From NCBI GenBank assembly GCA_040756875.1, contig JBFLYH010000002.1, forward strand, positions 446,644-510,643: DNA of 64,000 nt, given 5' to 3'. The stretch's first letter is position 1. Each line of letters opens with the position of its first letter. Positions 1 to 28,116 of this stretch are shown piece by piece. This DNA comes from a candidate division FCPU426 bacterium (GTDB lineage: Bacteria > Oederibacteriota > JAAXVQ01 > JAUVAV01). The notes beneath the pieces are model-generated. The model saw nothing but the letters and a program-made list of their open reading frames with translations, was not told where the DNA came from and searched no databases. The translations under genes and the position numbers were made by a program.

Positions 1-985
1 AAGCAGCCAGCAGCAGGCAGGCCAGCGCCGGGACGCTGAGATAGCGGTTGTCGAACACATTGATCTTCACCTGGGAATAAACCCACACCATGGCCAGGGG
101 CGCCACCAGCAGTGTTCCCAAGAACAACCAGGTGCGAAACGGGAGGGCCCGGAAATTTTCAGTCAGCCGGGGCCAACCAGCGCTCAGCCACACCCCGGCT
201 GCCAGGGCCAGGCCAGCCAGGACCGCGGCCTTGTCGGACCAGGTCCAGCAGGCCGTGCCCACCATGAATGCGTAGAGGGAGTGGAGCGGCTCCCACAAAC
301 CGGCGCCTGTGCCGCGCCACGAGGGCCCACCCAGGCTCAGGTGGTGCCAGGCCGCCGCCATCCAGGGCGCATACGCCAGGGCCAGGGCTGCTTGCATGAT
401 CAGCCATTCGCGCCACAGGGAGCGGCCTTCGCTGTTTTTCCGCGCCGCGAGCGCCAAAAAAATCCATTCCGCAACCAGGGCCAGCCCGCTGAAATAATGG
501 GTGTAAAGCGCGGCCAGGGTGCACAGCCAGTAGCCCAGCGCAAAACGCCGGCCGCGCGTTTCGAACCAGCGCCAGAAAAAATACAAGGACCCGGCGGACA
601 GCAGGGCCAGCAGTCCGGGCATGCGCGCCTGGCGGGAGAGTTCGATGAAATACGGCGAGGCGGCGACCAGCAGCGCGGCCCACCAGGCCGCGGCGCGGCC
701 GGCCAGCAGCCGCCCCAGGCCGAAGGCCACGGGCACCAGCAAGGCGCCGTAAAGCGCGGAAGGAAAACGCAGGCTGAACTCGCTTGTGCCAGCCAGCCGG
801 ATCCACAGCGCCTGCAGGAAATGGAACAGGGGCGGATGGATGTCCAGCGCAGCTCCCTGCCAAATGCCCGGCCAGGAAGCCGAGGCCAGCCGCAGGCTGT
901 AGGCTTCGTCCAGCCACAGGGAGCGGAAGTCGAGGTGGAAGAGCCGCAGGCCCAGGGCCGCCAAGATCAGGAGCAACAGGCCTAG
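1..985 (-). CDS. GT39/ArnT-like (GT-C, PMT_2 family) membrane glycosyltransferase; N-terminal 328 codons only, 3' end lies beyond the window start
   Basis: The reverse-complement translation starts at ATG 985 as MEYSQALGLLLLILAALGLRLFHLDFRSLWLDEAYS..., the typical N-terminus of polyprenyl-phosphate-sugar-dependent GT-C enzymes, and is polytopic. The frame stays open to position 1. The ORF track omits it because it is incomplete. Confidence 0.65.
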
Positions 986-1002
986 CGCTTGTGAATATTC
1001 CA

Positions 1003-1442
1003 TTCCCCTCCCCTGGTGGGAGGGGCTGGCGGAGGGGGTGCCTTCAGTTCGCAAACCCATGCTTAGCCCCCTCACCCTCCCCTCTCCCGCAGAGGGGAGA
1101 GGGATAATACTTTTGTACTCGCCGCTGCATTGTTCCCCTTTTCCGGCGGAAGGGGTCCACCCAATTTTCTCCCCTCCCCTGGCGGAAGGGGATGGGGGAG
1201 GGGGTGGATTCAGTTCTCAAACCCACACTCATCCCCCTCGCCCTCCCCTCTCCCGCAGAGGGGAGAGGGGTAATACTTTTGTACTCGCCGCTGCATTGTT
1301 CCCCTTTTCCGGCGGAAGGGGTCCACCCGATTTTCTCCCCTCCCCTGGCGGAAGGGGCTGGCGGAGGGGGTGCCTTCAGTTCGCAAACCCATGCTTAGCC
1401 CCCTCACCCTCCCCTCTCCCGCAGAGGGGAGAGGGATAATAA
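1003..1442. repeat. Tandem repeat, about 167 bp unit x 2.6 copies (copy 1 ~1003-1168, copy 2 ~1169-1335, partial copy 3 ~1336-1442; copies 1 and 3 near-identical, copy 2 diverged). Each unit carries GC-rich hairpins (CCCTCTCCC-gcagag-GGGAGAGGG and CCCCTT-ttccggcgg-AAGGGG)
   Basis: Direct reading of the 985-1470 intergenic region between two minus-strand genes. The ORFs 1038..1439(+), 1192..1398(+), 1044..1232(-) and 1210..1407(-) are repeat-driven artefacts with near-identical peptides. Confidence 0.8.
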
Positions 1443-1469
1443 AAATGATTCATCGTTGAGGAATTTAAA

Positions 1470-2612
1470 TTACCCCGCCTTTTCCCGCCGCACGTCCGCG
1501 TACACTTGTTCCAGGGCTTCGGTCATGCGCTCCCAGGTGTACTGTCCGGCCGTGCGCCGGCCGGCTTCGCCCAGGCGCTGGCGCAGGCCGGGTTCGTTCA
1601 GCAGGCGCCGCATGGCCGCGGCCACGCTGGCTTCGCTGGCCCAGGTGTGCAGGATCAGTCCTTCCCGTTCGTTCTTCATCAGTTCCACGGCTCCGGCGTT
1701 GCCGGTCACGAGCACCGGCAGCCCGGCGGCCATGGCTTCCAGGATGCTCAGGCCGAAGGATTCGTATTCCGGCAGGGACACATAGGCGTCGCAGGCCGCG
1801 TACGCGGGCCGGGGATCGCGGCCCGCAGCCAGGAAGCGCACCCAGGGGCCCACGCCCAGGCGTTCGGCCAAGCGCTGGAGCCGCGGTTCCAGTCCCAAGG
1901 TTGTGGCGATCACGACCACGGCTTTGGGTTCGGAGAGCGCGCGCAAGGCCCGGATCAGGCGCTCGGCGCCTTTGAGGCGGGGCGCAGTGGCCACCAAAAG
2001 GAAAGCCGTTTGCTCCGGCGCCAATTCGAGCCGGCGCCGCGTCTCGCCGCGCCACTCGTCCAGCGCGGCCGGGGCAAAGGCTTCGGGGTCCACGCCGGGG
2101 TAGATCACGTGAAACGGAAGATGGCGGGTGCCGGGATAGGCCGCGCGCACCTGGCGCCGCACCTGCCGGGACACGGCCACCAGGGCGCGGGCGCTGGCAA
2201 AAGCGTTGCGTTCCATCTGCACCACGGCGCGGTGGTTGAGGCTGAAAAACTTCCGCAGGCGGTTGACCCAACCGGGATGGGCGCGCAGCGAGGCCCGCAT
2301 GCCGGCCAGGTGGCAGGAATGGGCGGTCACCACGTCCCCCCAGCGCCCGTCCGAGCCTTGTGTGTGCACGAGGTCATAGGCCTGCTGGTGGGCCACGAAC
2401 CCCGCCCGGGTGCTGAAGGACAGCACCGAACGCCACAACGGCGCGCGGGCCGAGGGCACGGGCACCAGCGCGGCCGGGCAGGCCGCGTATTCGCCGGGGC
2501 GCGTGATCACCACCACCTCGTGCCGAACGGCCAGGCGCGTGGCCAGCTCGAAAGTGTACCGGGGGATGCCGGCGCCCGGCCGGCAGCCGCGGGCGATCAG
2601 GGCGATCTTCAT
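1470..2612 (-). CDS. Glycosyltransferase family 4 (GT-B, RfaG-like)
   Basis: MKIALIARG... start. GT4 C-terminal motif region (...LPEYESFGLSILEAMAAGLPVLVT...). ATGA overlap with the downstream gene at 2609-2612. The annotated ATG at 2645 is probably an N-terminal over-extension. Confidence 0.75.
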   Translation of the reverse strand: MKIALIARGCRPGAGIPRYTFELATRLAVRHEVVVITRPGEYAACPAALVPVPSARAPLWRSVLSFSTRAGFVAHQQAYDLVHTQGSDGRWGDVVTAHSCHLAGMRASLRAHPGWVNRLRKFFSLNHRAVVQMERNAFASARALVAVSRQVRRQVRAAYPGTRHLPFHVIYPGVDPEAFAPAALDEWRGETRRRLELAPEQTAFLLVATAPRLKGAERLIRALRALSEPKAVVVIATTLGLEPRLQRLAERLGVGPWVRFLAAGRDPRPAYAACDAYVSLPEYESFGLSILEAMAAGLPVLVTGNAGAVELMKNEREGLILHTWASEASVAAAMRRLLNEPGLRQRLGEAGRRTAGQYTWERMTEALEQVYADVRREKAG

Positions 2613-3724
2613 GCGGCCTCCTGATCGCGCAGGCGGCGGTACCATTTGTAGGTCTCGCGCGCCAGACGGTCGGTGGTGAAATGGGCCAGCACCCGCTCCC
2701 GGCCCTTGCGGCTATAGAACGCCGCCAGCGAGGGCTGGGACTGGATTTTCTGCAACTGGCCGGCCAGCATTTCCCACCGGCCCTCGGGGAAGATCATGCC
2801 CGCTTCCCCGATCACGAAGGGGATCTCCCCTGAGTCCGATCCGATCACCGGCACTTCGCAAGCCATGGCCTCGACCAGCACGCGGCCGAACTGCTCCTTC
2901 CAGAACGGCCGGGTTTCGGAGGGCAGCACCAGCACGTCCAGCCGGCCGAGGGCTTCGGGCATGTGGTCATTGGGAATGGCGGGGATGAATTCGACGCGCG
3001 GTTCGAGCCCGAGCTGCTCCACCCGGGCCCGCAGCAGGGGCGCATGCGGCCCGCTGCCCGTGATCTGCAGGCGCCAGTCGCACGGCAGGCTGCGCACCGC
3101 GGCCAGCAGGGTGTCCAGGCCTTTTTCCTCCAGCAGGCGGCCGAAATAACCGATGGTGAACGTCCGTTTCAACCCGGGTTCCCTGGCCTGCGGCCGGAAG
3201 ACTTCGGGATCGACGCCGTACTGGGGCAGCACCAGGCATTCGCCGTGAAACCCGCGGCGGGCCAGCACTTCGCGGGCGGCCTGGTTGCCCGCAATGGCCC
3301 AGCGCGCGCGGCTCACCACCCAGCGGTCGACCCAGGACAGCGGCCACTTGTAGCCGCGGAAAATATTTTCCCACGTGAAAAACACCAGGGGCCGCCGGTG
3401 GCGCCGGGCCAGGCGCAGGGCCTGGCCGCAGACCAGGGAATAGGGTTCTTCCTCCACGTGGATGAGCTCGGGCTCCACCTGGCGCACGAGTTCGGGAAGC
3501 CCTTTCAGCCAGAACCCGCCCACGCGGCCCAGTCCCCAGCCGGGCAGGCGGTGGATCTGGATGCCCTCCTCCCAGCCCGGAGCCGGCGCCTCCACCCAGC
3601 GGCCGCCTTCGGGCCAGGCCTCGGGCAGGACCAGGTGCAGCTCGCAGCCCAGTTTGGCCAGGGCGTGGAATTTGCGGCGGTACAGCCCGACCACCGCGCT
3701 GTGGGAAATCACCAAAACTTTCAC
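2609..3724 (-). CDS. Glycosyltransferase family 4
   Basis: 371 aa beginning MKVLVISHSAVVGLYRRKFHALA and carrying ...VLPSETRPFWKEQFGRVLVEAMACEVPVIGSDSGEIP..., the E-X7-E GT4 signature region. Confidence 0.75.
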   Translation of the reverse strand: MKVLVISHSAVVGLYRRKFHALAKLGCELHLVLPEAWPEGGRWVEAPAPGWEEGIQIHRLPGWGLGRVGGFWLKGLPELVRQVEPELIHVEEEPYSLVCGQALRLARRHRRPLVFFTWENIFRGYKWPLSWVDRWVVSRARWAIAGNQAAREVLARRGFHGECLVLPQYGVDPEVFRPQAREPGLKRTFTIGYFGRLLEEKGLDTLLAAVRSLPCDWRLQITGSGPHAPLLRARVEQLGLEPRVEFIPAIPNDHMPEALGRLDVLVLPSETRPFWKEQFGRVLVEAMACEVPVIGSDSGEIPFVIGEAGMIFPEGRWEMLAGQLQKIQSQPSLAAFYSRKGRERVLAHFTTDRLARETYKWYRRLRDQEAA

Positions 3725-3860: not shown

Positions 3861-4976
3861 TCAGCAGGAAGCGAGAATCTGCCGGTACATTCCGCGCGTA
3901 AGGGAAATGATCCGCTCCCAGGAAAAATAAGCGCGGCTTACTTCCAATGCCTCGCGGCGCAGGCTGGCCGTGAGCTCCGGGTGGTCCAAAAGATGCAGGA
4001 TGCCTTGCGCCAGATCCACGGGATCGCGGGGCCGTACGGCCCAAAAATGCCGGTTGGCCGTCAGCTCTTCGAGCGCCAGCGGCGGGTCGGTGGAGATCAC
4101 CGCCAGGCCGTGCGCCAGCACGGCCACCAGGCTGCTGCGGTTCAGGCGCGCGCCCTCGGAATACGGCTGCACGGCAATGCGGCCGGAGCGCAGGGCCGCG
4201 CCGGCTTCAGCCGCGGGCAAATAACCCGTGAACACCACCTCGGCCTCGAGCCCAAGCGCTTGAATGCGCTGTTTGACGATCCGGTGGTAGGCGTAGGCTT
4301 CGGGTTCCAGGGCCGTGACCGCCAGCAGGCGCTGGGGCCGGCCCTGGCCTTTGAGGCGCGCCAGGGCCAGGAGCAAATCTTCCCAGCCTTTGTTCGGCAT
4401 GATGGTGCCGAAGTGGACCAGGTCCGTCGCCGCCGGCCCGGTTGCGGCCTCCGGAGTTTCCGCTTCCAGGGGATTGCCCAGCGGAATGATCTGAATCTTT
4501 TCCCGGCAGGACGGAAAATCGTTTTCCAGGGCTTTTTGATCCAGGCGGTTGGTGCAGATCAGGCGGTGCGCGAAGCGCAGGGTCGGCCACAGCCGGGCTT
4601 TGCCCTTCCAGGTGAACTGGCGGTATTCGTGCAGGGTCGCCACGCGGCGGCCGCGGAACCCCGTCAGTTCCAGCGCCGGAAAAAGCAGGTTGGGCGCCAA
4701 GCCCAGGCCATAGCCCAGGGCCGGATAATGCAGATGAACCACTTCAGGCGCCAGCCGGCGCACATGCGCCGCCAGCTCCAGGGTGCGGGCCGCGTTCCAG
4801 TCCAATTGCAGGGGCAGGAGCTCCACTTGAGCTGCCGGCGGTGCGGCGACCGAAGCGGAAGTCAGCACCTGCACGCTTTCTCCGGCCGCGGACAGCCGTT
4901 CGGCCTGCAGATAAACCTGGTCTCCCACCCCGCAGCGGACCGGGGGGTAGGAGGCGGAGATCAAACAGACTCTCAT
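3861..4976 (-). CDS. Glycosyltransferase family 4
   Basis: Start MRVCLISASYPPVRCGVGDQ... at 4976. ATGA overlap with the upstream Wzy-like gene's stop. The 805-aa ORF 3861..6278 is an antisense/over-extended artefact; only its C-terminal 371 aa look like protein. Confidence 0.7.
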   Translation of the reverse strand: MRVCLISASYPPVRCGVGDQVYLQAERLSAAGESVQVLTSASVAAPPAAQVELLPLQLDWNAARTLELAAHVRRLAPEVVHLHYPALGYGLGLAPNLLFPALELTGFRGRRVATLHEYRQFTWKGKARLWPTLRFAHRLICTNRLDQKALENDFPSCREKIQIIPLGNPLEAETPEAATGPAATDLVHFGTIMPNKGWEDLLLALARLKGQGRPQRLLAVTALEPEAYAYHRIVKQRIQALGLEAEVVFTGYLPAAEAGAALRSGRIAVQPYSEGARLNRSSLVAVLAHGLAVISTDPPLALEELTANRHFWAVRPRDPVDLAQGILHLLDHPELTASLRREALEVSRAYFSWERIISLTRGMYRQILASC

Positions 4977-6394
4977 GGCTGCCGCTCCGGCTGGCGCGAC
5001 CGCGCCCGGCGCAGCCACGCCAGCGCTGCGGCCGCGGCCACGGCCGCGTGCATCCCGCGGTCGTGAACCAGCCCTTGTTCGGTGAAATTGGCGGCAAAGA
5101 ATCCGGCCAGTCCGGCGGCCAAGGCCCAGCCTGCGGCTTGCGGCCAGCCGGCAGGCAGGCGCCGCAAATACCCGGCCATTCTGGCCACGTAGCGCCAAAC
5201 CGCCAGCCCAACGGCCGCCAGGCCCGCGGCCCCGGTTTCCACGAGCACGGTCAGCCACAGGGAATGCGGATGCGTGAGCAGGCCGATGGGATTGACGCTG
5301 CCCGAGCCCCACAGCGGCGCCACATGCCGGTACATGCCCGGCCCGATCCCCAGCCAGGGCGAAGTCGCCAGCATCCGGCCGGACACGAACAGGTAATCCC
5401 AGCGGTCCTGCCAGGAAGACAGCTTGTCCTCCCAAAACGGCCCGCTGAGCAGTTCGGGTTTCAGGCCGATGAACAGGGCCGCGCCGGCCAAAGCGATGAT
5501 CGTTGTCCATAAGCCCCAGCGCGGCTGTTCGCAAGCGGCCCATCCCAGCAACACGGCCGCAGCGCAGGCCACGGCCAGCCAGCCGGTCAGGGAGAAGGTC
5601 ATCAGGAACCCCGCGGTCATGCACGCGCAGGCCAGCAGGCCCGCCAGCCGGCCCCAGGGCCGGGGATGGAACAGGGCCGCGGCCGCGCTGAAGGGCAGCA
5701 GCAGGGCCAGGTACATGGCCAGGGCATTGGCCCCGAATCCGGCGGCCGCGCGCACCGTGTCGCCCGCGGCCAGGGAAATGCGGGTCAGCTCCGGCCGGGC
5801 GCCCGCGCCGGCCGCAACCTCGGCCACGCCTGTCCAGGCGCTGATCACGGCAGCCGCGATCATGGCCCAGAACACGCGTTCCGCGTCGCGGCTGCGGCGC
5901 AGCCAGCCCAGGGTCAGCAGAAACGCCAGCAGAAATTCCCACCAGCGCAACAGGCCGCGCCAGGCGGCCGGCGCCTGAGCCAGCCAGGCGGACAGGGCCA
6001 GCACCAGCACAAACGGCCAAAACCAGCCCAGGGCCGAAAGGATTTGGGCGCGCCAGGACGGCTGGCGGAACCAATGCCAGGCCGCGCCGGGCAGGGCCGC
6101 CAGCAACAGCATTTCGCCGGTGTATACGGTCAGCAGCCCGCCGAATTCCCGCGCGTACTCGAACGGCAGGCAAAACACCCACAAGGCCGGCAGCCAGCAC
6201 GGGGCCATGAACCCCAGCAGCAGCGCGGCCGCGCCGAGGACCATGTCCGCCATGGCCGAGCCGCGGCCGAGAAACCAAACCAGCCCGGCGGCCAGGCTCA
6301 CGGCCAGGGCGGCCCGGTCCTGGCGCCGGGCGAGAAAAAGCGCCCGGCCCGACGCGCCGAAGAAGCCGGCGGAAAAATCGGCGGCCGCGAACAT
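4973..6394 (-). CDS. O-antigen ligase / Wzy-type polymerase family membrane protein (Wzy_C domain)
   Basis: 473 aa, polytopic. Contains ...SPWLGIGPGMYRHV...GSVNPIGLLTHPHSLWLTVLVETGAAGL..., typical of the O-antigen ligase domain. Confidence 0.65.
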   Translation of the reverse strand: MFAAADFSAGFFGASGRALFLARRQDRAALAVSLAAGLVWFLGRGSAMADMVLGAAALLLGFMAPCWLPALWVFCLPFEYAREFGGLLTVYTGEMLLLAALPGAAWHWFRQPSWRAQILSALGWFWPFVLVLALSAWLAQAPAAWRGLLRWWEFLLAFLLTLGWLRRSRDAERVFWAMIAAAVISAWTGVAEVAAGAGARPELTRISLAAGDTVRAAAGFGANALAMYLALLLPFSAAAALFHPRPWGRLAGLLACACMTAGFLMTFSLTGWLAVACAAAVLLGWAACEQPRWGLWTTIIALAGAALFIGLKPELLSGPFWEDKLSSWQDRWDYLFVSGRMLATSPWLGIGPGMYRHVAPLWGSGSVNPIGLLTHPHSLWLTVLVETGAAGLAAVGLAVWRYVARMAGYLRRLPAGWPQAAGWALAAGLAGFFAANFTEQGLVHDRGMHAAVAAAAALAWLRRARSRQPERQP

Positions 6395-6395
6395 G

Positions 6396-6902
6396 TCAGC
6401 GGGAAATGGGTTGCATAAAGGAGAGGTATTGGCGGGCGCCGTCGTCCAGCGGCTTGACGCGTGTGATCAGCCCCGAGCATTCGACTTTCGCGGTCATGAT
6501 CAGGCACCAGACCCCGGCCCGCAGTTGCGCGGGTTCCGAAGGAAAACCCGGATGCAGGCGGACCAGGCGCAGCGGGCCGCTGATCCTCAGCTTGATCAGC
6601 ATGTCCTGCCGGCCGGCCAGGGGCACGGGCGAAGGCAGGGCGTCCAGGGGCTGGACAGGCTGCAGGGAAAGGATCTCGGCCACTTTCCTGCCCTGCGAAT
6701 CCAGCACTGCGTCACCGGGCGCGAGCAGGGCCATCAGTTCCGGCAGGGGTTTGGGCACCCTGACCTCGGCTATGGCCACGCCGTTGAAATCCCCGCCATT
6801 CGCGCCCCGCGACAGGGCGTAGCGCACCACCATGCCGGCGGCAAACACAGCCAGCAACAGCACCAGCAAATCCCACCACCGCAGCGTCCAGTCGGATTTC
6901 AT
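6396..6902 (-). CDS. Small membrane-anchored protein of unknown function (N-terminal TM helix, about 168 aa); paralogue of 25829..26335
   Basis: MKSDWTLRWWDLLVLLLAVFAAGMVV... has a single N-terminal hydrophobic segment followed by a soluble domain. Sits 1 nt upstream of the Wzy-like gene. Confidence 0.5.
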   Translation of the reverse strand: MKSDWTLRWWDLLVLLLAVFAAGMVVRYALSRGANGGDFNGVAIAEVRVPKPLPELMALLAPGDAVLDSQGRKVAEILSLQPVQPLDALPSPVPLAGRQDMLIKLRISGPLRLVRLHPGFPSEPAQLRAGVWCLIMTAKVECSGLITRVKPLDDGARQYLSFMQPISR

Positions 6903-7011: not shown

Positions 7012-7034
7012 CGGGGTTAACGGCTTTTACCCCG
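7012..7034 (-). terminator. GC hairpin cggggt-taacggctttt-accccg overlapping the stop of the GT2 gene; possible weak terminator or attenuator
   Basis: Inverted repeat read directly. Only a short T-run follows on the minus strand (aaccgTTTTat). Confidence 0.3.
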
Positions 7035-8069
7035 AATACCTTCGTGCCCTTCGTTTTTCTTCGTGTCCTTCGTGGTCATCCCTGTCTCCGGTTTGATGCT
7101 CCAGTACTTCCATTCGCCGGCCAGCACCCAGAACAGCCGCAGCCAGGGAACGGCCGCGAACTGGGGGATCAGCAGTGCGAGCTCCTGCCAGCGCACGCGG
7201 CGCTTGCGGCAGACCGCGTACACCGACCCTGCCCAGCCCAGGAGCCAGGCCGCCAGGCCCGCGGCCAGCAGGAGCGGCCGGCCCAGCAACGCGCCCAGCG
7301 CAGCGGCCGGTGCGCCGGTATACACGCCCCAGAAAAAAACCGGGAACGCGCGGCCGTCGATCCACTTCAGGTGGCGGCGGTAAAGGGCCGGATGCTTGCG
7401 CCGCAACAAAGCCTCGTGCAGGCCGTAGCGCGCCTCCCGCAGGTAGACCGTGGCCGGCGCCTGAAACAGGGGATGCTCCACGATGCAGGCCGGCTCGAAG
7501 ACAATGCGTCCGCCGTGTTCCAGCACCGAAAAGGCGAAATCCGAATCCTCGCGGTTGGCCCGCAGGAACCTGCGGTCAAATCCCCCCAACGCGGCAAAGA
7601 CAGAACGGCGGTACAACATGTTGCAGGTGATGAAATTGCCGCCGCGGGTGTTGGCCACCAGGTGCGTCAGGGCGGTGGGCCGGCCGGAGTCCAGCGGAGG
7701 CCGGGTCAGCCCCTCCACGCCGGCCACCGCCGGGTCGTCGAAATGCGGGGCCGCGCGTTTCCACCAGGCGGGATCCACCAGCACGTCCGAATCCAGAAAA
7801 CCGAGAATCTCGCCCCGGGCGGCGGCCGCGCCCTGGTTGCGGGCCGCGGCCGGCCCTTGGGACCTTTCCTGGCGCAGAACGACCAGTGAAAACGGATCGC
7901 GGCGCGCGGCCAGGGCCGCGGCCGTATCGTCCGTGGAGCCGTCATCCACGACGATCACCTCGAGGTCCTGCGGCAAAACCTCGACCCGCGCCAGGGTATC
8001 CAGGGTCCGGCCGAGCAGTTCGCGGCGGTTGAAGGTCGGGATCACCACGGACACTCGCGGGGCGCTCAT
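7017..8069 (-). CDS. Glycosyltransferase family 2 with C-terminal transmembrane region
   Basis: Start MSAPRVSVVIPTFNRRELL...VVDDGSTDDT...DSD. Hydrophobic C-terminal third. ATGA overlap with wzx-like stop at 8066-8069. The 711-aa ORF to 9152 is an over-extension. Confidence 0.7.
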   Translation of the reverse strand: MSAPRVSVVIPTFNRRELLGRTLDTLARVEVLPQDLEVIVVDDGSTDDTAAALAARRDPFSLVVLRQERSQGPAAARNQGAAAARGEILGFLDSDVLVDPAWWKRAAPHFDDPAVAGVEGLTRPPLDSGRPTALTHLVANTRGGNFITCNMLYRRSVFAALGGFDRRFLRANREDSDFAFSVLEHGGRIVFEPACIVEHPLFQAPATVYLREARYGLHEALLRRKHPALYRRHLKWIDGRAFPVFFWGVYTGAPAAALGALLGRPLLLAAGLAAWLLGWAGSVYAVCRKRRVRWQELALLIPQFAAVPWLRLFWVLAGEWKYWSIKPETGMTTKDTKKNEGHEGIRGKSR

Positions 8070-9502: not shown

Positions 9503-9510
9503 GTGCCCCT

Positions 9511-14104: not shown

Positions 14105-14427
14105 ATTACTGTCCTGCCTGGTGGTTAACAGGCTGATGAAAAAGTCCGCAGAGCGGCCTTTTTCGTCTGCACTGCTTAGAATACCCCTTGAAAAATCAGA
14201 GATTTTTCAAGGGGTAACAGGCTGCCAAATGAGCATATAAGAGTTTTTCAGCAGCCTGTTAATAACTGATCGATTGCAAGAAAAGCCAACAGGATGACAG
14301 ACACTGTTGGATTCGAGAAACGACCGCCTTTATAAAATATTCGCTGCGTTCACCGGCTGACATGAACAGCAAATTTGCCTGTTCGAGTCCCAATTATAGG
14401 CCAAGGCTCTTCAATTGAAAAGCCTTT
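14105..14427. promoter_or_regulatory. AT-rich 323-bp internal intergenic region. It holds a perfect 14-bp-stem palindrome (14194-14224, ccccttgaaaaatc-aga-gatttttcaagggg) and three copies of TAACAGGCTG (14126-35 and 14225-34 direct; 14254-63 inverted)
   Basis: Read directly. It is the only sizeable AT-rich gap inside the co-directional cluster. Confidence 0.45.
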
Positions 14428-19789: not shown

Positions 19790-19790
19790 C

Positions 19791-20996: not shown

Positions 20997-21095
20997 CTTC
21001 AGAGTGGAGTGACCCCCCGGACTAAAGCTCCCCTGCGGAGGGATTGACGAATAGGGTTCATGTTGAAACTCATGTATCTTTCCGTTTTTCGCAAA

Positions 21096-22079
21096 TCAAG
21101 GCTTCAGAAAATACCCTTGCCGTATCCGGTATTCGTTTAAAATTTCTTTATCCGTCACTGACGTCCGGCGTTTTTGTCCCATAAAATAATATCCGGAAGC
21201 GGCCAAAGCCGAATCACGACGCCCAGCCAAATAGTAGTCAAAGTATTTCAAACCAAATGCCGTAAGATGAACGAAAAGCGTCGCGATTTTCTGCATAATG
21301 CCGGATTGAAAAAAAGCCATAAGAAAATTTTTGATTATTTCCGCCAAGGCTACGCCAGGACCGTTGACAATACCCGATGCCAGTTCGTCAAATTGCCGAA
21401 AAAGCCGGCGGTGACCTATGGGCGTATAACGGGTGAAATCATAGGGCCAGCCATGAATCGGTTGCATAAAAGGCGTTTCGGCGTACACCAACGCTCGTGA
21501 CTTAAGTACGCGCCAAATCTCGGCGACGCATGCCGGTGCATCCGCCACATGCTCCAACACCGCTTGCACGATTACCGCATCGAAGTATCCGTCAGGAAAA
21601 GGTATCTGGTGGGCATCTACAATAACGGCCGTCCTTGGCCCAAAGGATACATCCGTTTCGATCAAGCGCAAGTCCGGAAAGCGCAACAGGACTTTTATGC
21701 CTTCGCCAATTATACTGCCGCCTAAAATCAATACTTTGGGGTGGGGGTGTTGCCGCAACAAACGCCCCGCCAACTTTTGGTAATTTGCCGCCGCGGATAT
21801 ATTGCACGACAGTTTGGGCAGCAAATGAAATACCTTTTTTCCCAACGTGGGTCTCGCGGTGTTTTTGAAAAAGGTGTCTTTGCGCTCCAAGTAGTCTCGT
21901 TGTTGAAATACGCTGCGTCTTTCATCAATCATGACCGGAATACCATCCACAATCGGAAAAGTCAGACGGCATGTTTTTTTATCGCACAGCAATTCGTTTT
22001 TTAGCCTGTGCAACCGGGAACCGCAGGCCGGACACCGTAAATCATTATGGTTGAATGGATCTTCTGGTTTAGACATCAT
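21096..22079 (-). CDS. Class I SAM-dependent methyltransferase with N-terminal Trm112-like zinc ribbon (CPACG...C..C)
   Basis: MMSKPEDPFNHNDLRCPACGSRLHRL...CDKKTCRLTFPIVDGIPVM..., then a methyltransferase fold (...VLILGGSIIGEG...VIVQAVLEHV...). Markedly lower GC than neighbours. The ATG at 22079 has GGAAAG 7 nt upstream; the ATG at 22103 is an alternative. Confidence 0.6.
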   Translation of the reverse strand: MMSKPEDPFNHNDLRCPACGSRLHRLKNELLCDKKTCRLTFPIVDGIPVMIDERRSVFQQRDYLERKDTFFKNTARPTLGKKVFHLLPKLSCNISAAANYQKLAGRLLRQHPHPKVLILGGSIIGEGIKVLLRFPDLRLIETDVSFGPRTAVIVDAHQIPFPDGYFDAVIVQAVLEHVADAPACVAEIWRVLKSRALVYAETPFMQPIHGWPYDFTRYTPIGHRRLFRQFDELASGIVNGPGVALAEIIKNFLMAFFQSGIMQKIATLFVHLTAFGLKYFDYYLAGRRDSALAASGYYFMGQKRRTSVTDKEILNEYRIRQGYFLKP

Positions 22080-22106
22080 TTTCGCTTTCCGGATGTGAAC
22101 CATCGT

Positions 22107-22826
22107 TTATTCCGAAGATGCCACGGACCGGTTTTTAATGACGCGCGCCGGCACACCCGCCACAACGCTGAAGGGCGGGACATCCTTGGTCACCACACTG
22201 CCCGCCGCGACCACGCTGCCCTGGCCGATGCGCACGCCGTCCAGTATGATGCAGCCGGTGCCGAGCCAGCAGTTGTCCTCGACCACGATCCCCTGGCGGG
22301 TGACTCCCTGCTGGCGCATGGGGATGCGCGGGTCGGAAAACACGTGGTTCTCCGCGAACAGCCCCACGCGCGGACCCATCAACACGTCCTCGCCGATCTG
22401 AATGAACCCGGCGCAGCCGACGTAACTGAAGGCCCCTACATTGGAGCGGGCGCCGATGGAAAAGCCCTCCCCGAGTTCGCGGCCGTAGTATCCGGAGGGA
22501 CGGATCATGGCCAGGCGCCCGATGGTCACCTGGTCGCCCAGGGTGACGCCGCGCCGGGACAAGCCCTGGACCTCGCAGCCTGATTCCAGCACGACGTTCC
22601 GGCCCAGGTGCAAACAGCGGGGATTGCGAAGCATGGCGCCCGGATGGATGAACTGCATTCCGCGGGCAGATCCAAACCACGGCCGCCACCATAGTCCCCG
22701 CAGCAGGCTCCATCCCATCCGGCCGACAATCGCGAGCACGTCGCCGCCGGTCAGCGCGGGATCCAAAGCGTAGGCCGGATCCTTCTTCATCCGGCGCAAC
22801 AGCGCGTTAATGGTTTTTTTCAGCAT
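22107..22826 (-). CDS. Hexapeptide-repeat (left-handed beta-helix) acetyltransferase (WbbJ/maltose O-acetyltransferase-like)
   Basis: Start MLKKTINALLRRMKKDPAY... Tandem [LIV]G-x4 hexapeptide repeats (...IGARSNVGAFSYVGCAGFIQIGEDVLMGPRVGLF...). Confidence 0.7.
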   Translation of the reverse strand: MLKKTINALLRRMKKDPAYALDPALTGGDVLAIVGRMGWSLLRGLWWRPWFGSARGMQFIHPGAMLRNPRCLHLGRNVVLESGCEVQGLSRRGVTLGDQVTIGRLAMIRPSGYYGRELGEGFSIGARSNVGAFSYVGCAGFIQIGEDVLMGPRVGLFAENHVFSDPRIPMRQQGVTRQGIVVEDNCWLGTGCIILDGVRIGQGSVVAAGSVVTKDVPPFSVVAGVPARVIKNRSVASSE

Positions 22827-23949
22827 GGCGTTTGCACAACTCCCCGGCCAGTGCTTCCAGCGCACGGGCGGATTTTTCCCACGAAAAACGTTCCAGTTGC
22901 CTTCCGCCGGCCTCGGTCAGCTTCGCCGCCGCGTCGGAATCCAGCAGCGAATTCAAGGCGCCGGCTATGGCTGACTCGGACAGTGGATCGAAATACACCG
23001 CGCCGTCGCCGGCTACTTCCCGCAACACGGGCAAATCCGAACACGCCACCGGCGTGCCGCAGGCGAACGCCTCCAGCACCGGAATGCCGAAACCTTCATA
23101 CAGCGTCGGAAACACCAAGGCCGTGGCGCCCTGATACAGGCCGGGCAATTCGGCCAGCGGCAGATGTCCGGTCAGCAGCACCCGTTCGGACAAGCCCAGT
23201 TTCTCAATCTCAGCCCGGACGGTCTCTGAATCGTCCAGATCCTGTTTGGGGCCTGGTTGGCCGACCAAAACCAGGGATATCCCCGAATGGGCCCTGGCCA
23301 CTTCGGCGAACGCCCGGATCAGCCGCGGCAAATTTTTTCTTTTTTCCATGACCCCGACGTGCAGAAAATATCTCTTCGGCCGCAGTCCCCGGCCAGCCAG
23401 CGCCGGGGCGATCTGCCCGGGCAGGGCAGGCCGGTACACCTCGCGGTTGCAGGCCGGCGGCACCACCGCGATCTTGTCCGCCGGCACCTTAAACAGTTCC
23501 GCGATTTGCCGCTTGGCCGTTTCGGTAATCGTGACGATCCGGCCGGCCGAACGGATCGCCGGTTTATAGATCCATTGAAACAGCATCAGCCAAAAACGGT
23601 TGTACTCCGCCGGGCGCAGAATGAACGCCGCATCATAGACGACCACCAGGCGCGGCAGCGGGCAAAAGCGGGGCGACAGGTATTCCGGGGAGAGCAGAAC
23701 GTCGCATCCCTTCCGCCAGGCCAGAAACGGCAGCTGGATTTGAATCCACCCCCACAGGCGCGCGTGGTTCCATATGGTGCCCCACTTGCCGCCGGATTTC
23801 ACCGGATACTCTTCGGGAATGAATTCCCGGATCTCCGTCGGGCTGCCGCCGCGCCGCCAGACGCCCAGCAATTCCCGGATATACACGCCCGCCCCGGTCC
23901 GGGCAGTGGCCAGACAGGCCAGATCCATCCCTATCCGCAAGGGGTTCAC
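22807..23949 (-). CDS. Glycosyltransferase family 4
   Basis: 380 aa. Carries ...LVFPTLYEGFGIPVLEAFACGTPVACSDLPVLREVAGD... Confidence 0.7.
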   Translation of the reverse strand: MNPLRIGMDLACLATARTGAGVYIRELLGVWRRGGSPTEIREFIPEEYPVKSGGKWGTIWNHARLWGWIQIQLPFLAWRKGCDVLLSPEYLSPRFCPLPRLVVVYDAAFILRPAEYNRFWLMLFQWIYKPAIRSAGRIVTITETAKRQIAELFKVPADKIAVVPPACNREVYRPALPGQIAPALAGRGLRPKRYFLHVGVMEKRKNLPRLIRAFAEVARAHSGISLVLVGQPGPKQDLDDSETVRAEIEKLGLSERVLLTGHLPLAELPGLYQGATALVFPTLYEGFGIPVLEAFACGTPVACSDLPVLREVAGDGAVYFDPLSESAIAGALNSLLDSDAAAKLTEAGGRQLERFSWEKSARALEALAGELCKRHAEKNH

Positions 23950-25832
23950 AGCGCCTGAAACTCCTTCGTTTCAGACGGCGCCCGAAGATCGGCGTTATTC
24001 TGGAAAACCCAGCCAATCAGCCACCAGGTAATGAAAACCAGGAAGTAATTAATGTAAACCTGCGACGTCATTCCCAGAATCACAATACTGGAAAGCGCGG
24101 CTAAAGCAATTACAGCAACCCACTGAACAATTTCATTCTTGTTCTGCATGATTACCCTTGCTAGAGCGGCCAGAACGATGCCATGTAAAAAGATGAAAAG
24201 CCCCATGCCCATCAAGCCGATTTCCCTTCCCAAAATGAGATATTGATTCTCGCCGCCGACAGTGCCCTGAAATCGTTTCCCAATAAATCCCGCGCTGCCA
24301 AGTCCGGTACCCGTCATTTGTTGTTGGATGATATCCACGCTTTTCTTCCATTCTCCCAAGTGCCCCTGCGCTGAAGCTTCCTGGAAGGTTGCTGTACCAA
24401 ATATCCATTGGCTTAACTCATTGGTGGCAAAAATAATCAGCGCCAAGGCTGCCGTTAGCCATATTAACCGCCACCCCAAGTGGAGATGTCGGTGGTGTAA
24501 AAACCAGGTCAGCAGCAACAGTTCGACACCCGCGCCGAAAATCGCCGCCCGGGTAAAGGCGAGTAAAAATACCGACATTAAAAAGGAAAAAACCAAAATA
24601 CGGAGCGTCGATTGTTTGGCATTCCTGGCCTGCGCGCACCAATAAACAGTCACAGGTATGATTAGTATCATGGCATAGGCAAAATCGATAGGGCCTAGGA
24701 AAAAACTGCCCAGACGCCGGACAATGTACCCTTCCAGCCAAAAAGTGAATGGCAAACCATTCGGCGTAGGGAAAACACTATTAAATGAGTGTTTAATATA
24801 ATCCGTATATCCCAAATGAAGCCAGATATCGGTAAGCACGAAGCCCTTTTCCAGCGCGCCGGCCAGACAGGCCGCGATACCCAAGGCCAGCATGGCCAGG
24901 AAAAACCGCTTGATTTGATCAGAAGACAGGCTGAACATCCGCCCCAGGTAAAAACAAACGATAAAATACACATTGTAGCGGAGGCTGTACAGCGCGGCAT
25001 GGGGCACCGCCGAACCCCGGGCCTGGTAAAAGGCGGCGAAATTGAAAACCACGAAAACCGCCAACAGGAAATCCGTCCACCCCAACCGCGGTTTGGCCTG
25101 CCCGCTGAACCAAAGCCAGCCGGCTTTGGCCGCCAATACCACCAGCAGGATGTCCTTCCAGGCCCGAATCAATTTATCGGCCATGGGACTCAGGCCGACT
25201 TGTTCGGTTAAAAAAGTCATCATTAAATGGTGCACGGGCAGCAGCAGCAGGAACAGCCACAATCCCAGTTGCGGTTTGTGCCAGGTTAAAACCACCAGCC
25301 AACCCAATACCGCCAGGGCGGCCAGGGAATTGTACCTTCCGCTGAACATCAACATGCCGATAAAGCCCGCGAACAACGCCAAGACAACCGCGGCCGAGCG
25401 ATCGTCAACAGCGCCTTCCCGGCGTTGTTCAAACCAGGCCAGCCAGAGCCCGAATCCACTCAAGATTGTTTTCAGTTCCCAAAACGGGATCCAGCCTCTC
25501 AGCCAGAGATTGCATAGCGTATTAATTATCATGGCAGCTGACATTCCCAAGCCAAAAACGAAAAGCGGACGGCCAAGGGCCAGCGCAAAGATGCTGCTGC
25601 GGCGGAGGCGGTCAAGCAGATAGGTCGAGGTCAAGCCGGCGGACCAGCTTGCCAGCAAGCCCGTCAATCCCAGGCCGCCGGCCCACCACTTCAACAGGAG
25701 GGAACGGCCGGCTGCCGAACGCACTTTCTCAATCCAGGTGGAGATCAGGGAAGTTGAAAACGCGGCTGTGATTTTATCCCACATGTCGGAAAACGCCCGC
25801 GGCTTCCATGCCGATGCAGAAGAGGATTTCAC
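23946..25832 (-). CDS. O-antigen ligase / Wzy-like polymerase family membrane protein (large, 628 aa); low-GC gene
   Basis: Polytopic. Carries ...FTRAAIFGAGVELLLLTWFLHHRH... and ...ILGREIGLMGMGLFIF..., typical of Wzy_C. Roughly 50% GC versus about 68% for the surroundings. Confidence 0.6.
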   Translation of the reverse strand: MKSSSASAWKPRAFSDMWDKITAAFSTSLISTWIEKVRSAAGRSLLLKWWAGGLGLTGLLASWSAGLTSTYLLDRLRRSSIFALALGRPLFVFGLGMSAAMIINTLCNLWLRGWIPFWELKTILSGFGLWLAWFEQRREGAVDDRSAAVVLALFAGFIGMLMFSGRYNSLAALAVLGWLVVLTWHKPQLGLWLFLLLLPVHHLMMTFLTEQVGLSPMADKLIRAWKDILLVVLAAKAGWLWFSGQAKPRLGWTDFLLAVFVVFNFAAFYQARGSAVPHAALYSLRYNVYFIVCFYLGRMFSLSSDQIKRFFLAMLALGIAACLAGALEKGFVLTDIWLHLGYTDYIKHSFNSVFPTPNGLPFTFWLEGYIVRRLGSFFLGPIDFAYAMILIIPVTVYWCAQARNAKQSTLRILVFSFLMSVFLLAFTRAAIFGAGVELLLLTWFLHHRHLHLGWRLIWLTAALALIIFATNELSQWIFGTATFQEASAQGHLGEWKKSVDIIQQQMTGTGLGSAGFIGKRFQGTVGGENQYLILGREIGLMGMGLFIFLHGIVLAALARVIMQNKNEIVQWVAVIALAALSSIVILGMTSQVYINYFLVFITWWLIGWVFQNNADLRAPSETKEFQAL

Positions 25833-26335
25833 GGTTTCGCGAAAGGTTGGTAATCCTGACTGATGATTTCGCCCAGCTGGTTGACCCGGGAGTTGTTCAG
25901 CTCAAACTCCTGGCCGATTTGGAGTTTCAAAACGAACGAGGAATGGCTATAGATCATTTTCGAGGGATAAACCAGCACCGGCCGGTTGAAAAGCACATGC
26001 AATTTGACTTCATTTTTAAAGGGGTGGTTTTCGACGACCAACCGCCCGTTGACGTCGTTGTTGACGATCTTTTCCGGCGTGACCGAAAGGATGTTGTCGA
26101 TCGAGCCATACGACCGCACGCCGCTTTTAAAGCGCAGGCTGTACAACTTGTCGCCCGCTTGCAACGAATCAATGACCGCCTGCGGCTGGTTCTTCAGCAT
26201 CACGCCGACTCCGGTGATTTGCCCGATCGGTTTCGCTCCTCCAATTACTTTGGTTCCAAAGAAAATCGCGGCACCGAAAAACAGAATCAAGACCGACCAA
26301 TCAATAAAATTGAATCTCTTTATAGGATTTTCCAC
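25829..26335 (-). CDS. Small membrane-anchored protein (about 168 aa), paralogue of 6396..6902; likely GTG start
   Basis: GTG at 26335 is preceded by GGGAGGG 8 nt upstream, giving VENPIKRFNFIDWSVLILFFGAAIFFG... with a single N-terminal TM. ATGA-type overlap with the downstream Wzy-like gene. The annotated ATG at 26491 adds an implausible low-complexity N-terminus. Confidence 0.5.
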   Translation of the reverse strand: MENPIKRFNFIDWSVLILFFGAAIFFGTKVIGGAKPIGQITGVGVMLKNQPQAVIDSLQAGDKLYSLRFKSGVRSYGSIDNILSVTPEKIVNNDVNGRLVVENHPFKNEVKLHVLFNRPVLVYPSKMIYSHSSFVLKLQIGQEFELNNSRVNQLGEIISQDYQPFAKP

Positions 26336-26481
26336 CTTGGAACCCTCCCGGAAAGGCGGTATGTTACGGCAACTATACCTGAAAGTCAAATTAAAACGGC
26401 CCTCAAACCGGGGGCCGAACCAGCAGCATTGTACCTCGATTGCACTTTTCGCGATACTTAAAAAATATGGCCGGAAAAGGC

Positions 26482-26510
26482 TTGAAAACACAGCCTGACC
26501 ACTATATTCT
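26482..26510 (+). promoter_or_regulatory. Sigma70-like promoter TTGAAA-N17-TATTCT upstream of the only plus-strand gene
   Basis: Read directly; about 65 nt upstream of the ATG at 26578. Confidence 0.4.
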
Positions 26511-26577
26511 GGCTGCTGATTGCGGGCATGGTAATAGCCCTGAATGCCTTACTCTTTTCCGGGAAAGCACGGTTTTC

Positions 26578-28116
26578 ATGATTCCTGGCAATGCTCAGCG
26601 TTCCATCCGAATACTCCAAGCCGCCCTGATGGCTGTCGCTGCCTGCTATATCGGTCTGTACATCTGGGTGGCGCTCCAGCGCCTGGGATATCCCTTTGAA
26701 TTGGAATGGATCGAAGGCGCGATGGTGGATACAGTCCAAAGGATCCTGGACGGAAAGCCGTTGTTTGTCCAACCTTCCTTGGATTACGGCTATTTCATGT
26801 ACACCCCGTTGTATTTCTGGATTTCAGCCGCCGTGGCTAAATGGATCGGCATCGGGTTTCTTCCCTTGCGATTGGTTTCCTTTGCCTCCTCGCTGGGGTG
26901 TCTGGCCCTGATTTACGCCCTGGTTTTCCATGAAAACCGCAGCCACTGGGCCGGGATGGTCGCTGCCGGCTTGTTTGCGGCTACTTTCAAAATAAGCGGA
27001 GCCTGGTTCGACATTGCGAGGCTCGACTCCCTGTTCCTGCTTTTCACCCTGGCGGCGCTGTATAGCCTGCGCCGCTCCCGGCTGGCCTGGACGTGGCAAC
27101 TACTGACCGGGGTCATGCTTTTTCTGGCATTGCTTGCCAAGCAGGCGGCGCTGATCATCTTTGCGCCGGTGTTGCTGGCCGGGCTGTGGTTTGAGCCCCG
27201 AAAAACGGCGCCGGCCGTCCTGATTGCCGCGGTAATGAGCGCGGCCGCCTACGGCTGGGGCAATTGGGTTTCCCACGGCTGGGTCCATTATTACCTGTTC
27301 GAACTGCCCAGGCACCATCCGTTGCTGCCGAATATCTTCCTGGATTATTGGACCTTGGATTTGTTGAAACCCATGCCCATCGCCCTGGGTTTGTCCTTGT
27401 GGGCAGCCGTTCTTTTTTTAAGGAACCAACAGCCTGGCAATTATTTTTACGGATTAGCCGGTCTGGGCATGGTGGGCGCTTCTTATCTGTTCCGCCTGCA
27501 TTTCGGCGGCTACAACAACGTGCTTTTCCCCGTGTACGCCTGGCTGGCCATGGGTTTCGGCTTGGCGTTGCCCGAGATCCTGCGTCGGCTGCAATCGCCG
27601 GCCTCGGAACCGCGCCCATGGACTGTCGGGACGGCTGTCCTGGTCCTGGGCCTGTGCCTGCTCCAGTTCGGAATGCTGTTTTACGATCCTTCCAAGCAGA
27701 TCCCCACCCCGGCTGACCGTCAAGCCGGCCTGGCTTTCATTGAAAAAATGAAGTCCTTCCCCGGCGATGTCTATGTCCCTTTCACCGGTTATTTGCCGAC
27801 TTTGGCCGGCAAAAAGACCTTTCTCCACCAAGGCACACTGGCCGACATTCTGATCAAAGGCCGGGCGGACAGGACCAGCAAACAATTGTCGGAAGAAATC
27901 CGGCAGGCCATCCGCGAACAAAAGTTTGCGGCCCTGATTACAATCAATGGCGATCTGGCGGACAACCGGTCGCGGTTTCTGGAGCTTTTCGGTGAGGATA
28001 TGCGTGGTTATTACCGGCTCGAGGAACAACTCGCCTGGGGGGACTGCTTCATGCCGGTTACCGGCGCGCCCCGCCGGCCGGAAAACGTGTGGGTGCCGGT
28101 AAAGACCCAGCAATGA
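26578..28116 (+). CDS. GT39/ArnT-like (PMT_2) GT-C glycosyltransferase
   Basis: MIPGNAQRSIRILQAALMAVAACYIGLYIWVALQRLGYPFELEWIEGAM..., polytopic, about 512 aa. The annotated upstream ATG at 26440 is probably an over-extension. Confidence 0.6.
   Translation: MIPGNAQRSIRILQAALMAVAACYIGLYIWVALQRLGYPFELEWIEGAMVDTVQRILDGKPLFVQPSLDYGYFMYTPLYFWISAAVAKWIGIGFLPLRLVSFASSLGCLALIYALVFHENRSHWAGMVAAGLFAATFKISGAWFDIARLDSLFLLFTLAALYSLRRSRLAWTWQLLTGVMLFLALLAKQAALIIFAPVLLAGLWFEPRKTAPAVLIAAVMSAAAYGWGNWVSHGWVHYYLFELPRHHPLLPNIFLDYWTLDLLKPMPIALGLSLWAAVLFLRNQQPGNYFYGLAGLGMVGASYLFRLHFGGYNNVLFPVYAWLAMGFGLALPEILRRLQSPASEPRPWTVGTAVLVLGLCLLQFGMLFYDPSKQIPTPADRQAGLAFIEKMKSFPGDVYVPFTGYLPTLAGKKTFLHQGTLADILIKGRADRTSKQLSEEIRQAIREQKFAALITINGDLADNRSRFLELFGEDMRGYYRLEEQLAWGDCFMPVTGAPRRPENVWVPVKTQQ

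Follow-up and report, generated by a model that had tools for sequence, protein, structure and literature searches.

A probable polyprenyl-phosphate-sugar-dependent glycosylation block with tandem GT-C-fold genes in a Wzx/Wzy-type polysaccharide supercluster of an FCPU426 bacterium

The polysaccharide locus and its GT2, UPF0104 and GT-C genes

We analysed a 64,000-nt stretch of DNA from the metagenome-assembled genome of an uncultivated candidate division FCPU426 bacterium (contig JBFLYH010000002.1, positions 446,644 to 510,643), hereafter the window, and focused on its genes for GT-C-fold glycosyltransferases, for GT2 enzymes of the polyprenyl-phosphate type and for membrane proteins of the UPF0104 (LPG_synthase_TM) family. 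About 54 candidate proteins were scanned against Pfam, and the key ones against NCBIfam as well. The G+C content of the window was ~64%, and codon-position GC placed almost all real genes on the minus strand. The glycosyltransferase, UPF0104, Wzx, Wzy and nucleotide-sugar genes described below lie on that strand unless the plus strand is indicated. The window represents a surface-polysaccharide supercluster (O-antigen or exopolysaccharide) of the Wzx/Wzy type. One very large polysaccharide locus spans 1-44786 and, as indicated by Pfam, encodes a complete Wzx/Wzy pathway with an initiating phosphoglycosyltransferase, Wzx and Wzy. The remainder consists of housekeeping genes (an ATP-binding cassette (ABC) ATPase gene, argH, argG, argF, argD, argB, hslUV and a gene for a XerC-like recombinase), and the arg genes are broken up by a low-GC island.

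Within the locus, a GT2 gene (18746-19789), a UPF0104 gene (17810-18745), a PMT_2-type GT-C gene (16236-17819) and a DUF6311-like GT-C gene (14428-16239) follow each other in this order from 19789 to 14428. The GT2 stop abuts the UPF0104 start (0 nt), the UPF0104 and PMT_2 genes overlap by 10 nt and the two GT-C genes by 4 nt, leaving no room for an extra gene in the block. A 324-nt gap follows it, and the largest nearby gap (1076-1469) is occupied by a tandem repeat. The relative L001, with 74-82% protein identity, keeps the order Hexapep, GT4, GT2, UPF0104, PMT_2, 602-aa protein, GT4/DUF1972, phosphoglycosyltransferase, Wzy, GT2, Wzx, GT2. No signal clearly over shuffled background was obtained when 13800-23200 was scanned for promoters and terminators, and the 64-kb window gave neither tRNA nor Rfam matches. 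The original prediction, made from the sequence alone, had described repeated modules in which each GT-C enzyme has its matching GT2 and flippase-like protein; only 14428-19789 is such a contiguous block. It had also called these genes a GtrA/B/C-like module. The three-step logic behind that name (a GT2 charges a polyprenyl phosphate, a membrane protein flips the product, a GT-C transfers the sugar) fits the families, folds, packing and conserved order of the block, whereas the membership does not, as GtrA is missing and the GT-C enzymes are not GtrC.

Polyprenyl-phosphate-type GT2 enzymes are encoded at the three predicted places, and all of them have a DAD motif. The enzyme of the block (347 aa, Glycos_transf_2 85.6 bits) is membrane-anchored, with C-terminal transmembrane (TM) helices at about residues 225-284 that resemble those of GtrB, ArnC and dolichol-phosphate mannose synthase (DPMS). 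The other two are soluble. The product of 9511-10236 (241 aa, 112.8 bits, no TM helix) is encoded between a Wzx-like gene and a Wzy_C gene, and that of 55959-56669 (236 aa, 130.8 bits) between argF and the low-GC island. In PDB searches, the top match of all three was DPMS of Pyrococcus furiosus (5mlz), with E values of 5e-24 for 9511-10236, 2e-15 for 18746-19789 and 3e-20 for 55959-56669. The next matches were ArnC for all three (E 1e-10 to 1e-15) and, in the case of the soluble pair, a GtrB homologue from a cyanobacterium, in agreement with the DPM1/GtrB-like assignment proposed for them. The NCBIfam matches were AglJ (91 bits) and PpgS (69 bits) for 18746-19789, AglJ (124 bits) for 55959-56669, and ArnC, a dolichyl-phosphate hexose transferase and PpgS for 9511-10236. 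The control GT2 at 30026-30958 instead matched MftF, GlfT1 and rhamnosyltransferase models. Since the scores of the three enzymes were all far under the equivalog cut-offs (for example, AglJ 124 vs 325 and ArnC 67 vs 529), the donor sugar cannot be named.

Two standalone UPF0104 proteins are present, as had been predicted. That of the block (17810-18745) is 311 aa long with about 8 TM helices and is a candidate flippase for undecaprenyl-phosphate (Und-P) sugars. The profile of its family aligned over the whole length (residues 9-304, E 2.5e-5) with the MprF flippase domain of Rhizobium (6lvf/7duw). Precomputed annotation assigns PF03706 to the protein as well as to its homologues; in NCBIfam the protein gave no match to TIGR00374. 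The second (34754-35839), located between an RmlD-like gene and the RfbH gene, scored 181.7 bits against PF03706 (cut-off 33.4) and 94.9 bits against TIGR00374, 'flippase-like domain-containing protein' (cut-off 43.2). A P-x-x-P-x-G-L-G-x-x-E motif is common to both. Neither contains an aminoacyl-phosphatidylglycerol synthase domain; both consist of the TM domain only (311-361 aa), with no second Pfam domain. No match to the GtrA family (PF04138) was found among the window proteins scanned.

The window contains six GT-C-fold genes, not five as counted originally: four were recognized by PMT_2/PMT domains above the Pfam cut-offs, and two by AlphaFold2 models searched with Foldseek. The PMT_2 enzyme of the block (527 aa) scored 32.1 bits against a cut-off of 26.1. 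Its L001 ortholog also has PMT_2, and NEP stands at the place matching the LDE motifs of other PMT_2 enzymes. The gene at 26440/26578-28116 (PMT 40.4 bits vs 22.7 cut-off; PMT_2 23.7 bits) is the sole plus-strand gene of its region, within a lower-GC segment (0.52-0.55). The gene at 51232-52689 (485 aa, PMT_2 56.2 bits) has an LDE motif and lies at the end of the low-GC island in the arg operon. The fourth (2-1075; PMT_2 51.3 bits, PMT 33.6 bits) has an LDE motif after the first TM helix (TM1), and its C-terminus runs off the window start. The original prediction had placed a GT-C gene at 1-985; such a gene is indeed there, on the minus strand, as shown by the GC pattern at third codon positions, and the plus-strand frame of the region had no Pfam match.

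A G+C-rich tandem repeat lies at 1004-1441, with a 166-nt unit, 2.6 copies of about 90% identity and strong predicted hairpins. It occupies the gap (1076-1469) that separates the PMT_2 gene from the GT4 gene 1470-2645, spawns spurious small open reading frames and has no second full copy in the window. It also overlaps the first 24 codons of the open reading frame 2-1075, and for this reason the true start of that gene is probably the Met codon at about 1003.

The label GT39/ArnT-like, originally given to these enzymes, found no support. PMT (PF02366) was above the gathering score in 26440-28116 and 2-1075, and 16236-17819 and 51232-52689 matched PMT_2 only. PMT_4TMC (PF16192) had no match at E ≤ 0.01 in the four PMT_2/PMT proteins, of which 2-1075 is truncated and uninformative there, so that an assignment to GT39 is unsupported. 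ArnT-named and bacterial-Pmt-named NCBIfam models had no match at E ≤ 0.01 among the key proteins scanned; because no ArnT-named model matched and the locus is without Arn genes, an ArnT assignment is unsupported as well.

The two remaining large polytopic proteins are encoded by 14428-16239 (603 aa, identical to hypothetical protein AB1439_08275 of a candidate division FCPU426 bacterium) and 28332-29975 (547 aa, identical to AB1439_08330 of the same division). Neither was matched in Pfam, NCBIfam or PDB sequence searches, and PDB sequence searches with the PMT_2 proteins and with profiles of the 14428 and 28332 families gave nothing useful. Homologue alignments were therefore combined with AlphaFold2 models, which were compared with the PDB by Foldseek. 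Homologues of 14428-16239 have PF19830 (DUF6311). Its model (pLDDT 76, pTM 0.81) gave GT-C structures as all of its top 27 PDB matches (STT3, AftD, DPY19, AglB, ArnT, PglB, AftA, Pmt4 and ALG12; best E 6e-8). The model of 28332-29975 (pLDDT 94.7, pTM 0.93) likewise gave GT-C structures, including AftA, AftB, ArnT and STT3, as all of its top 22 matches (best E 2.6e-6, TM-score ≤0.56). GT-C catalytic residues are located just after TM1. In the family alignment of 14428-16239, D54 is invariant just past TM1; in that of 28332-29975, a DDAFFY motif at the same place includes an invariant D49 and a D48 conserved to at least 90%. These proteins, which the original prediction had listed with the GT-C genes, are thus of the GT-C fold. 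No Pfam model exists for the 28332-29975 family. Over 70 homologues were collected from TA06, Eisenbacteria and Myxococcota, and hardly any of them had a Pfam match. The neighbourhoods of this family are variable, often with a GT2 nearby and with no fixed partner.

Conservation of the GT2 and UPF0104 pair

To survey gene neighbourhoods, 67 genome loci with relatives of the UPF0104 protein 17810-18745 were fetched. The relative was callable in 65 of them, and neighbours were classified using the window's own proteins. A DPMS/GtrB-like GT2 was found within 4 kb of the UPF0104 relative in 46 of the 65 loci, and a GT-C in at least 19, these being the ones detectable with the window proteins as seeds. 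Orthologues of the GT2 18746-19789 scoring above 400 bits adjoin UPF0104 genes in about 20 other genomes.

Two recurrent arrangements were observed. In about 17 loci of Gemmatimonadota, a GT2 (324 aa), a UPF0104 protein and a YfhO-type GT-C of about 800 aa are encoded together with a small GT2 that is similar to 55959-56669 (block loci L044-L046, L048, L050, L051, L053, L055-L057, L062, L064-L066 and L070; e.g. L045:719-5782). In Gamma-, Delta- and Alphaproteobacteria, Synergistaceae and one acidobacterium, a GT2 with 370-466 bits against 18746-19789 is linked to genes for an FrhB-like protein, a polysaccharide pyruvyl-transferase and a UPF0104 protein (L010, L012, L014, L016, L023, L031, L035, L036, L040 and others; e.g. 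L016:3649-10098). In these pyruvyl-transferase-type cassettes a large polytopic protein of the YfhO, PMT_2 or DUF2142 type is often encoded directly after. When 24 polytopic neighbours from the proteobacterial-type loci were scanned against Pfam, about half were matched: YfhO 5, DUF7657 3, PMT_2 2, DUF2142 1, DUF6020 1 and DUF6077 1. We take the polytopic neighbours of these six families to be GT-C or GT-C-like.

The results show that the GT2 and UPF0104 genes form a conserved unit that is joined to different GT-C families in different lineages. A role of UPF0104 in handling the lipid-linked donor would predict just such a constant pair with a varying GT-C. The cassette that includes FrhB-like and pyruvyl-transferase genes suggests pyruvylation of a lipid-linked monosaccharide ahead of flipping, by analogy with ArnD, which acts on Und-P-Ara4FN.

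Proposed role of the block and alternative explanations

We consider it rather likely that the Wzx/Wzy supercluster includes a layer of periplasmic glycosylation that depends on polyprenyl-phosphate sugars, with the block from 19789 to 14428 as its core. The homology of the GT2 18746-19789 to DPMS, ArnC and GtrB, with its intact DAD motif, suggests that, on the cytoplasmic side, it would load a single sugar onto undecaprenyl phosphate. The UPF0104 protein 17810-18745 would then move the Und-P-sugar to the periplasmic leaflet; homology and gene linkage point to this step, which is the weakest of the scheme. The tandem GT-C enzymes 16236-17819 and 14428-16239 would transfer the sugar to periplasmic acceptors, and could either place one and the same sugar at two sites or start a side chain and then lengthen it. 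To judge from the genomic context, the acceptor would most likely be the repeat-unit polymer linked to undecaprenyl diphosphate and made by the neighbouring phosphoglycosyltransferase, GT4, Wzx and Wzy genes. The other four GT-C enzymes probably use the same or parallel lipid-sugar pools, which the soluble GT2s 9511-10236 and 55959-56669 and the UPF0104 protein 34754-35839 may supply. In this view the system would most likely use undecaprenyl-phosphate-sugar donors to decorate or extend, in the periplasm, the glycan of the locus itself.

Three-component periplasmic glycosylation is well established, pentofuranose systems included, and flippases of several families (GtrA/SMR-type, MATE) have been proposed for it, none of them directly demonstrated (PMC11127046). 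The scheme resembles GtrA/GtrB/GtrC of Shigella and Salmonella phages and the three-component O-antigen side-chain systems, in which a GT2 makes an Und-P-monosaccharide, which a membrane protein flips and from which a GT-C adds the sugar to a Wzx/Wzy polymer in the periplasm (PMC11127046). The window GT2s are homologous to GtrB. However, UPF0104 takes the flippase position, and the block encodes no GtrA (PF04138), SMR or dedicated MATE flippase. The GT-C enzymes are of PMT_2 and DUF6311-like type, two in tandem, and not GtrC-type or GT136, and the module is chromosomal and inside a polysaccharide locus, whereas Gtr systems are prophage-borne.

A parallel for the UPF0104 protein is found in archaea. 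On the basis of AglD, a GT2-UPF0104 fusion, and of an MJ_1079/MJ_1080-type archaeal neighbourhood with an AglD-like GT2 and a PMT/STT3-like protein, UPF0104/COG0392 proteins were all predicted in 2015 to be glycosylation flippases (Makarova et al., PMC5898192). The same combination of an AglD/AglJ-like GT2, a predicted UPF0104 flippase and a PMT/STT3-like GT-C recurs here, and AglJ gave the best NCBIfam score of the window GT2s. The window genes differ in being bacterial, separate and located in a Wzx/Wzy cluster, whereas the archaeal genes belong to an N-glycosylation pathway, and in the extra DUF6311-like GT-C. Because the arrangement had already been predicted (PMC5898192), our finding is a bacterial, polysaccharide-locus variant and not a new category.

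Further systems share some components with the window. ArnC, ArnE/F and ArnT likewise combine an ArnC-like GT2 and a PMT_2-type GT-C via an Und-P-sugar; the window, however, lacks equivalents of ArnA, ArnB, ArnD and ArnE/F, its aminotransferase is RfbH, and no ArnT-named equivalog matched. CsbB/GtcA/YfhO and GacI/GacL of Firmicutes (PMC8035078, PMC7389260) are multi-component systems for the transmembrane glycosylation of a surface polymer, and YfhO-type GT-Cs follow UPF0104 in the Gemmatimonadota relatives. They differ in the flippase (GtcA/GtrA in place of UPF0104) and in the GT-C family, and the window has a diderm host and an O-antigen-like context. In the mycobacterial Emb/Aft and PpgS/Rv3779 system, many GT-Cs are encoded in one envelope-glycan locus and the donor is a polyprenyl-phosphate monosaccharide. 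The protein 28332-29975 matches AftA and AftB structurally, and the window GT2s resemble PpgS, but the identity is 13-15% only and the window has no DPPR synthase or DprE genes. The membrane domain of the window UPF0104 proteins is homologous to those of MprF and GpgF. Both window copies are standalone, however, without an aminoacyl-phosphatidylglycerol synthase, and the partner is a polyprenyl-phosphate-type GT2 in place of a lysyl-phosphatidylglycerol synthase or a GT4.

A low-GC island (51232-55931; GC 0.44-0.50 vs about 0.64 in the flanks) lies between argF and argG and contains genes for three secreted proteins and one GT-C of the PMT_2 type. Together with the GT2 gene next to it, the order from 56669 to 51232 is a DPMS-like GT2, a PorV/UPF0164-like protein, a small secreted protein, another secreted protein that weakly matches phage-tail-collar, and the PMT_2 GT-C. 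The product of 54108-55931 is weakly PorV/UPF0164-like and has a long Pro/Thr-rich linker containing TPAPTPIPTPATPAPTPQPTPATPEPTQTPTPEPTQ. That of 53493-54071 is the small secreted protein, with a PAPTPTVTPTP stretch and a weakly Por_Secre_tail-like C-terminal domain of the type found in type IX secretion. Flanking direct or inverted repeats suggestive of a mobile element were not found at the island. A metagenome scan for relatives of the island gave only two matches at about 30% identity, with no shared neighbours.

The original prediction had raised protein O-glycosylation as an alternative. In this reading, Ser/Thr residues of envelope or secreted proteins would receive sugar from an Und-P-sugar through at least one GT-C, in the manner of actinobacterial Pmt and streptococcal GtrB/PgtC2. 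Within the window, the island block from 56669 to 51232 is the strongest candidate for it. Its genes are co-oriented with gaps of 27, 36, -4 and 18 nt, two of its three secreted proteins (54108-55931 and 53493-54071) have Pro/Thr-rich linkers, and PMT/PMT_2 domains with LDE motifs after TM1 occur in 2-1075 and 51232-52689. The island resembles the setup of streptococci, in which GtrB and the GT-C PgtC2 glycosylate Ser/Thr-rich disordered regions (PMC12041528). However, PT-rich linkers are common and in themselves no evidence of glycosylation, the island has no conserved relatives, and the window GT-Cs matched neither PMT_4TMC nor any ArnT- or bacterial-Pmt-named model. We regard protein O-glycosylation as unlikely, and as most plausible for the island; for the main block a glycan acceptor is favoured, because the block is embedded in a Wzx/Wzy polysaccharide cluster.

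Two other readings concern lipids. The GT2 and UPF0104 pair could make and flip a glycosylated membrane lipid, as GpgS/D/F do for GlcN-phosphatidylglycerol (GlcN-PG) or as HexSDF, and the adjacency of GT-C genes would then be incidental. UPF0104 is the phospholipid flippase domain of MprF, the gpgSDF operon (GT4, deacetylase, UPF0104) yields GlcN-PG (PMC12713373), and PplT/UPF0104 domains have been proposed as general phospholipid translocators (bioRxiv 10.1101/2022.03.11.483950). The GT2 of the block, however, belongs with DPMS, ArnC and GtrB, enzymes acting on polyprenyl phosphate, and is not a GT4; its operon overlaps with two GT-C genes in conserved order, and a GT-C directly follows UPF0104 in many unrelated lineages. 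A glycolipid end product therefore seems improbable to us. The PMT_2 enzymes might alternatively include ArnT-like ones that add an Und-P-carried sugar to lipid A phosphates or core sugars. The Pfam PMT_2 family includes ArnT, the GT2s match ArnC with the E values given above, and the window encodes Ugd and a DegT-family enzyme. The DegT-family protein is nevertheless an RfbH equivalog (625 bits vs 423 cut-off) and not ArnB (145 vs 631). Among the window proteins scanned there was no formyltransferase, deformylase or ArnE/F-type protein, no ArnT-named NCBIfam model matched, and the sugar genes fit dTDP-rhamnose, GDP-fucose and CDP-dideoxyhexose. Modification of lipid A or core is thus very unlikely.

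Periplasmic glycosylation of the locus's own glycan remains our preferred explanation, and several points weigh against it. Four of the six GT-C genes (2-1075, 26578-28116, 28332-29975 and 51232-52689) have no adjoining GT2 or flippase-like gene. The fold matches of the two Pfam-less proteins had moderate TM-scores of 0.4-0.56. The UPF0104 protein 17810-18745 itself scored 31.0 bits against PF03706, just under the cut-off of 33.4. The GT-C partner is not orthologous across lineages. The closest GT2 and UPF0104 relatives in other phyla accompany FrhB-like and pyruvyl-transferase genes, which the window lacks, and the ancestral role of the pair may for this reason be a different one. To our knowledge, flippase activity has never been demonstrated for any standalone UPF0104 protein. 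Even GpgF, the UPF0104 protein of the GlcN-PG operon, is a flippase by prediction only (PMC12713373). A literature search found no functional study for PF03706, DUF6311 or the combination of pyruvyl-transferase, F420-type and flippase genes.

A bolder proposal, which we put forward tentatively and regard as rather doubtful, is that standalone UPF0104 proteins constitute a fourth, widespread class of bacterial polyprenyl-phosphate-sugar flippases besides GtrA, SMR and MATE. The GT2 and UPF0104 genes would then be a portable cassette plugged into varied GT-Cs (PMT_2, DUF6311-like, YfhO, DUF2142 and others). In the window the cassette would feed six GT-Cs, and these would assemble much of the surface glycan in the periplasm, as in mycobacterial arabinan assembly, instead of only decorating it.

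Much of the diversity of surface antigens and of the variation in phage receptors comes from periplasmic glycosylation with lipid-linked monosaccharides as donors. The current understanding of how such systems work is unchanged by our results. The flippase step is unproven for every proposed family, and this locus, with the recurrent GT2, UPF0104 and GT-C neighbourhoods in many phyla, provides a concrete candidate. Two GT-C-fold families without functional description, one of them without a Pfam model, are added, and the little-known FCPU426 lineage is found to have a complex diderm-type envelope glycan apparatus.

Other genes of the polysaccharide locus and the window

The only phosphoglycosyltransferase of the window is of the WbaP type (11599-12990, Bac_transf 232 bits). 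According to Pfam, six GT4 enzymes are encoded in the polysaccharide locus, with genes at 1470-2645, 2609-3724, 3861-4970 and 12977-14104 among them, as well as ordinary GT2s at 7017-8072 and 30026-30958. One methyltransferase and one hexapeptide acyltransferase are also present. A Wzx-like gene extends from 8066 to about 9500 (Polysacc_synt protein 8066-9748), and a second one lies at 30955-32415 (Polysacc_synt). Clear Wzy_C proteins are encoded at 4973-6394 and 10233-11549. A third, divergent Wzy_C/O-antigen-ligase-like protein with about 14 TM helices, encoded at 23946-25832, had been missed in the original prediction. By itself it had no Pfam match, and pairwise BLASTP with a Wzy_C protein was not significant and did not settle the question. 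As PF04932 (Wzy_C) was found in 51 of 55 sampled homologues (434 homologues in all), we identify it as Wzy_C-like.

Nucleotide-sugar genes are located within 30026-44786. Pfam and NCBIfam matches indicate RfbH, a CDP-glucose dehydratase-like protein, two nucleotidyltransferases, RmlB (equivalog, 435.6 bits vs 365 cut-off), an RmlD-like protein, Gmd, an Fcl-like protein and Ugd. As far as family matches indicate, these genes fit dTDP-rhamnose, GDP-fucose, CDP-3,6-dideoxyhexose and UDP-glucuronate, a classical O-antigen-type repertoire. An Arn-like aminoarabinose pathway (Ugd, a short-chain dehydrogenase/reductase, DegT, GT2 and GT-C) was considered and rejected, since the DegT protein is the RfbH equivalog and the short-chain dehydrogenases/reductases fit Rml, Gmd, Fcl and CDP-glucose dehydratase.

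Two parts of the locus have a lower G+C content. The gene at 21096-22103, in a lower-GC stretch, encodes a methyltransferase with an N-terminal Trm112p-like zinc-ribbon; it is lacking in the otherwise syntenic L001 and for that reason looks like a recent operon insertion. Besides the divergent Wzy_C-like protein and the PMT-type GT-C on the plus strand, the lower-GC segment at 23946-28116 encodes a small membrane protein with weak similarity to DUF4330; this segment may be a separately acquired sub-cluster.

Three further proteins had no Pfam match. Good coding signal was observed at 6396-6902 (a 168-aa single-TM protein between Wzy and GT2 genes) and at 62640-63962 (a 440-aa soluble protein beside xerC). 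The 722-aa protein encoded at 44906-47074, adjoining a MalK-like ABC ATPase gene, has an N-terminal signal or anchor. Judged by eye, this protein might form a beta-barrel in the outer membrane and might be LptD/OstA-like.

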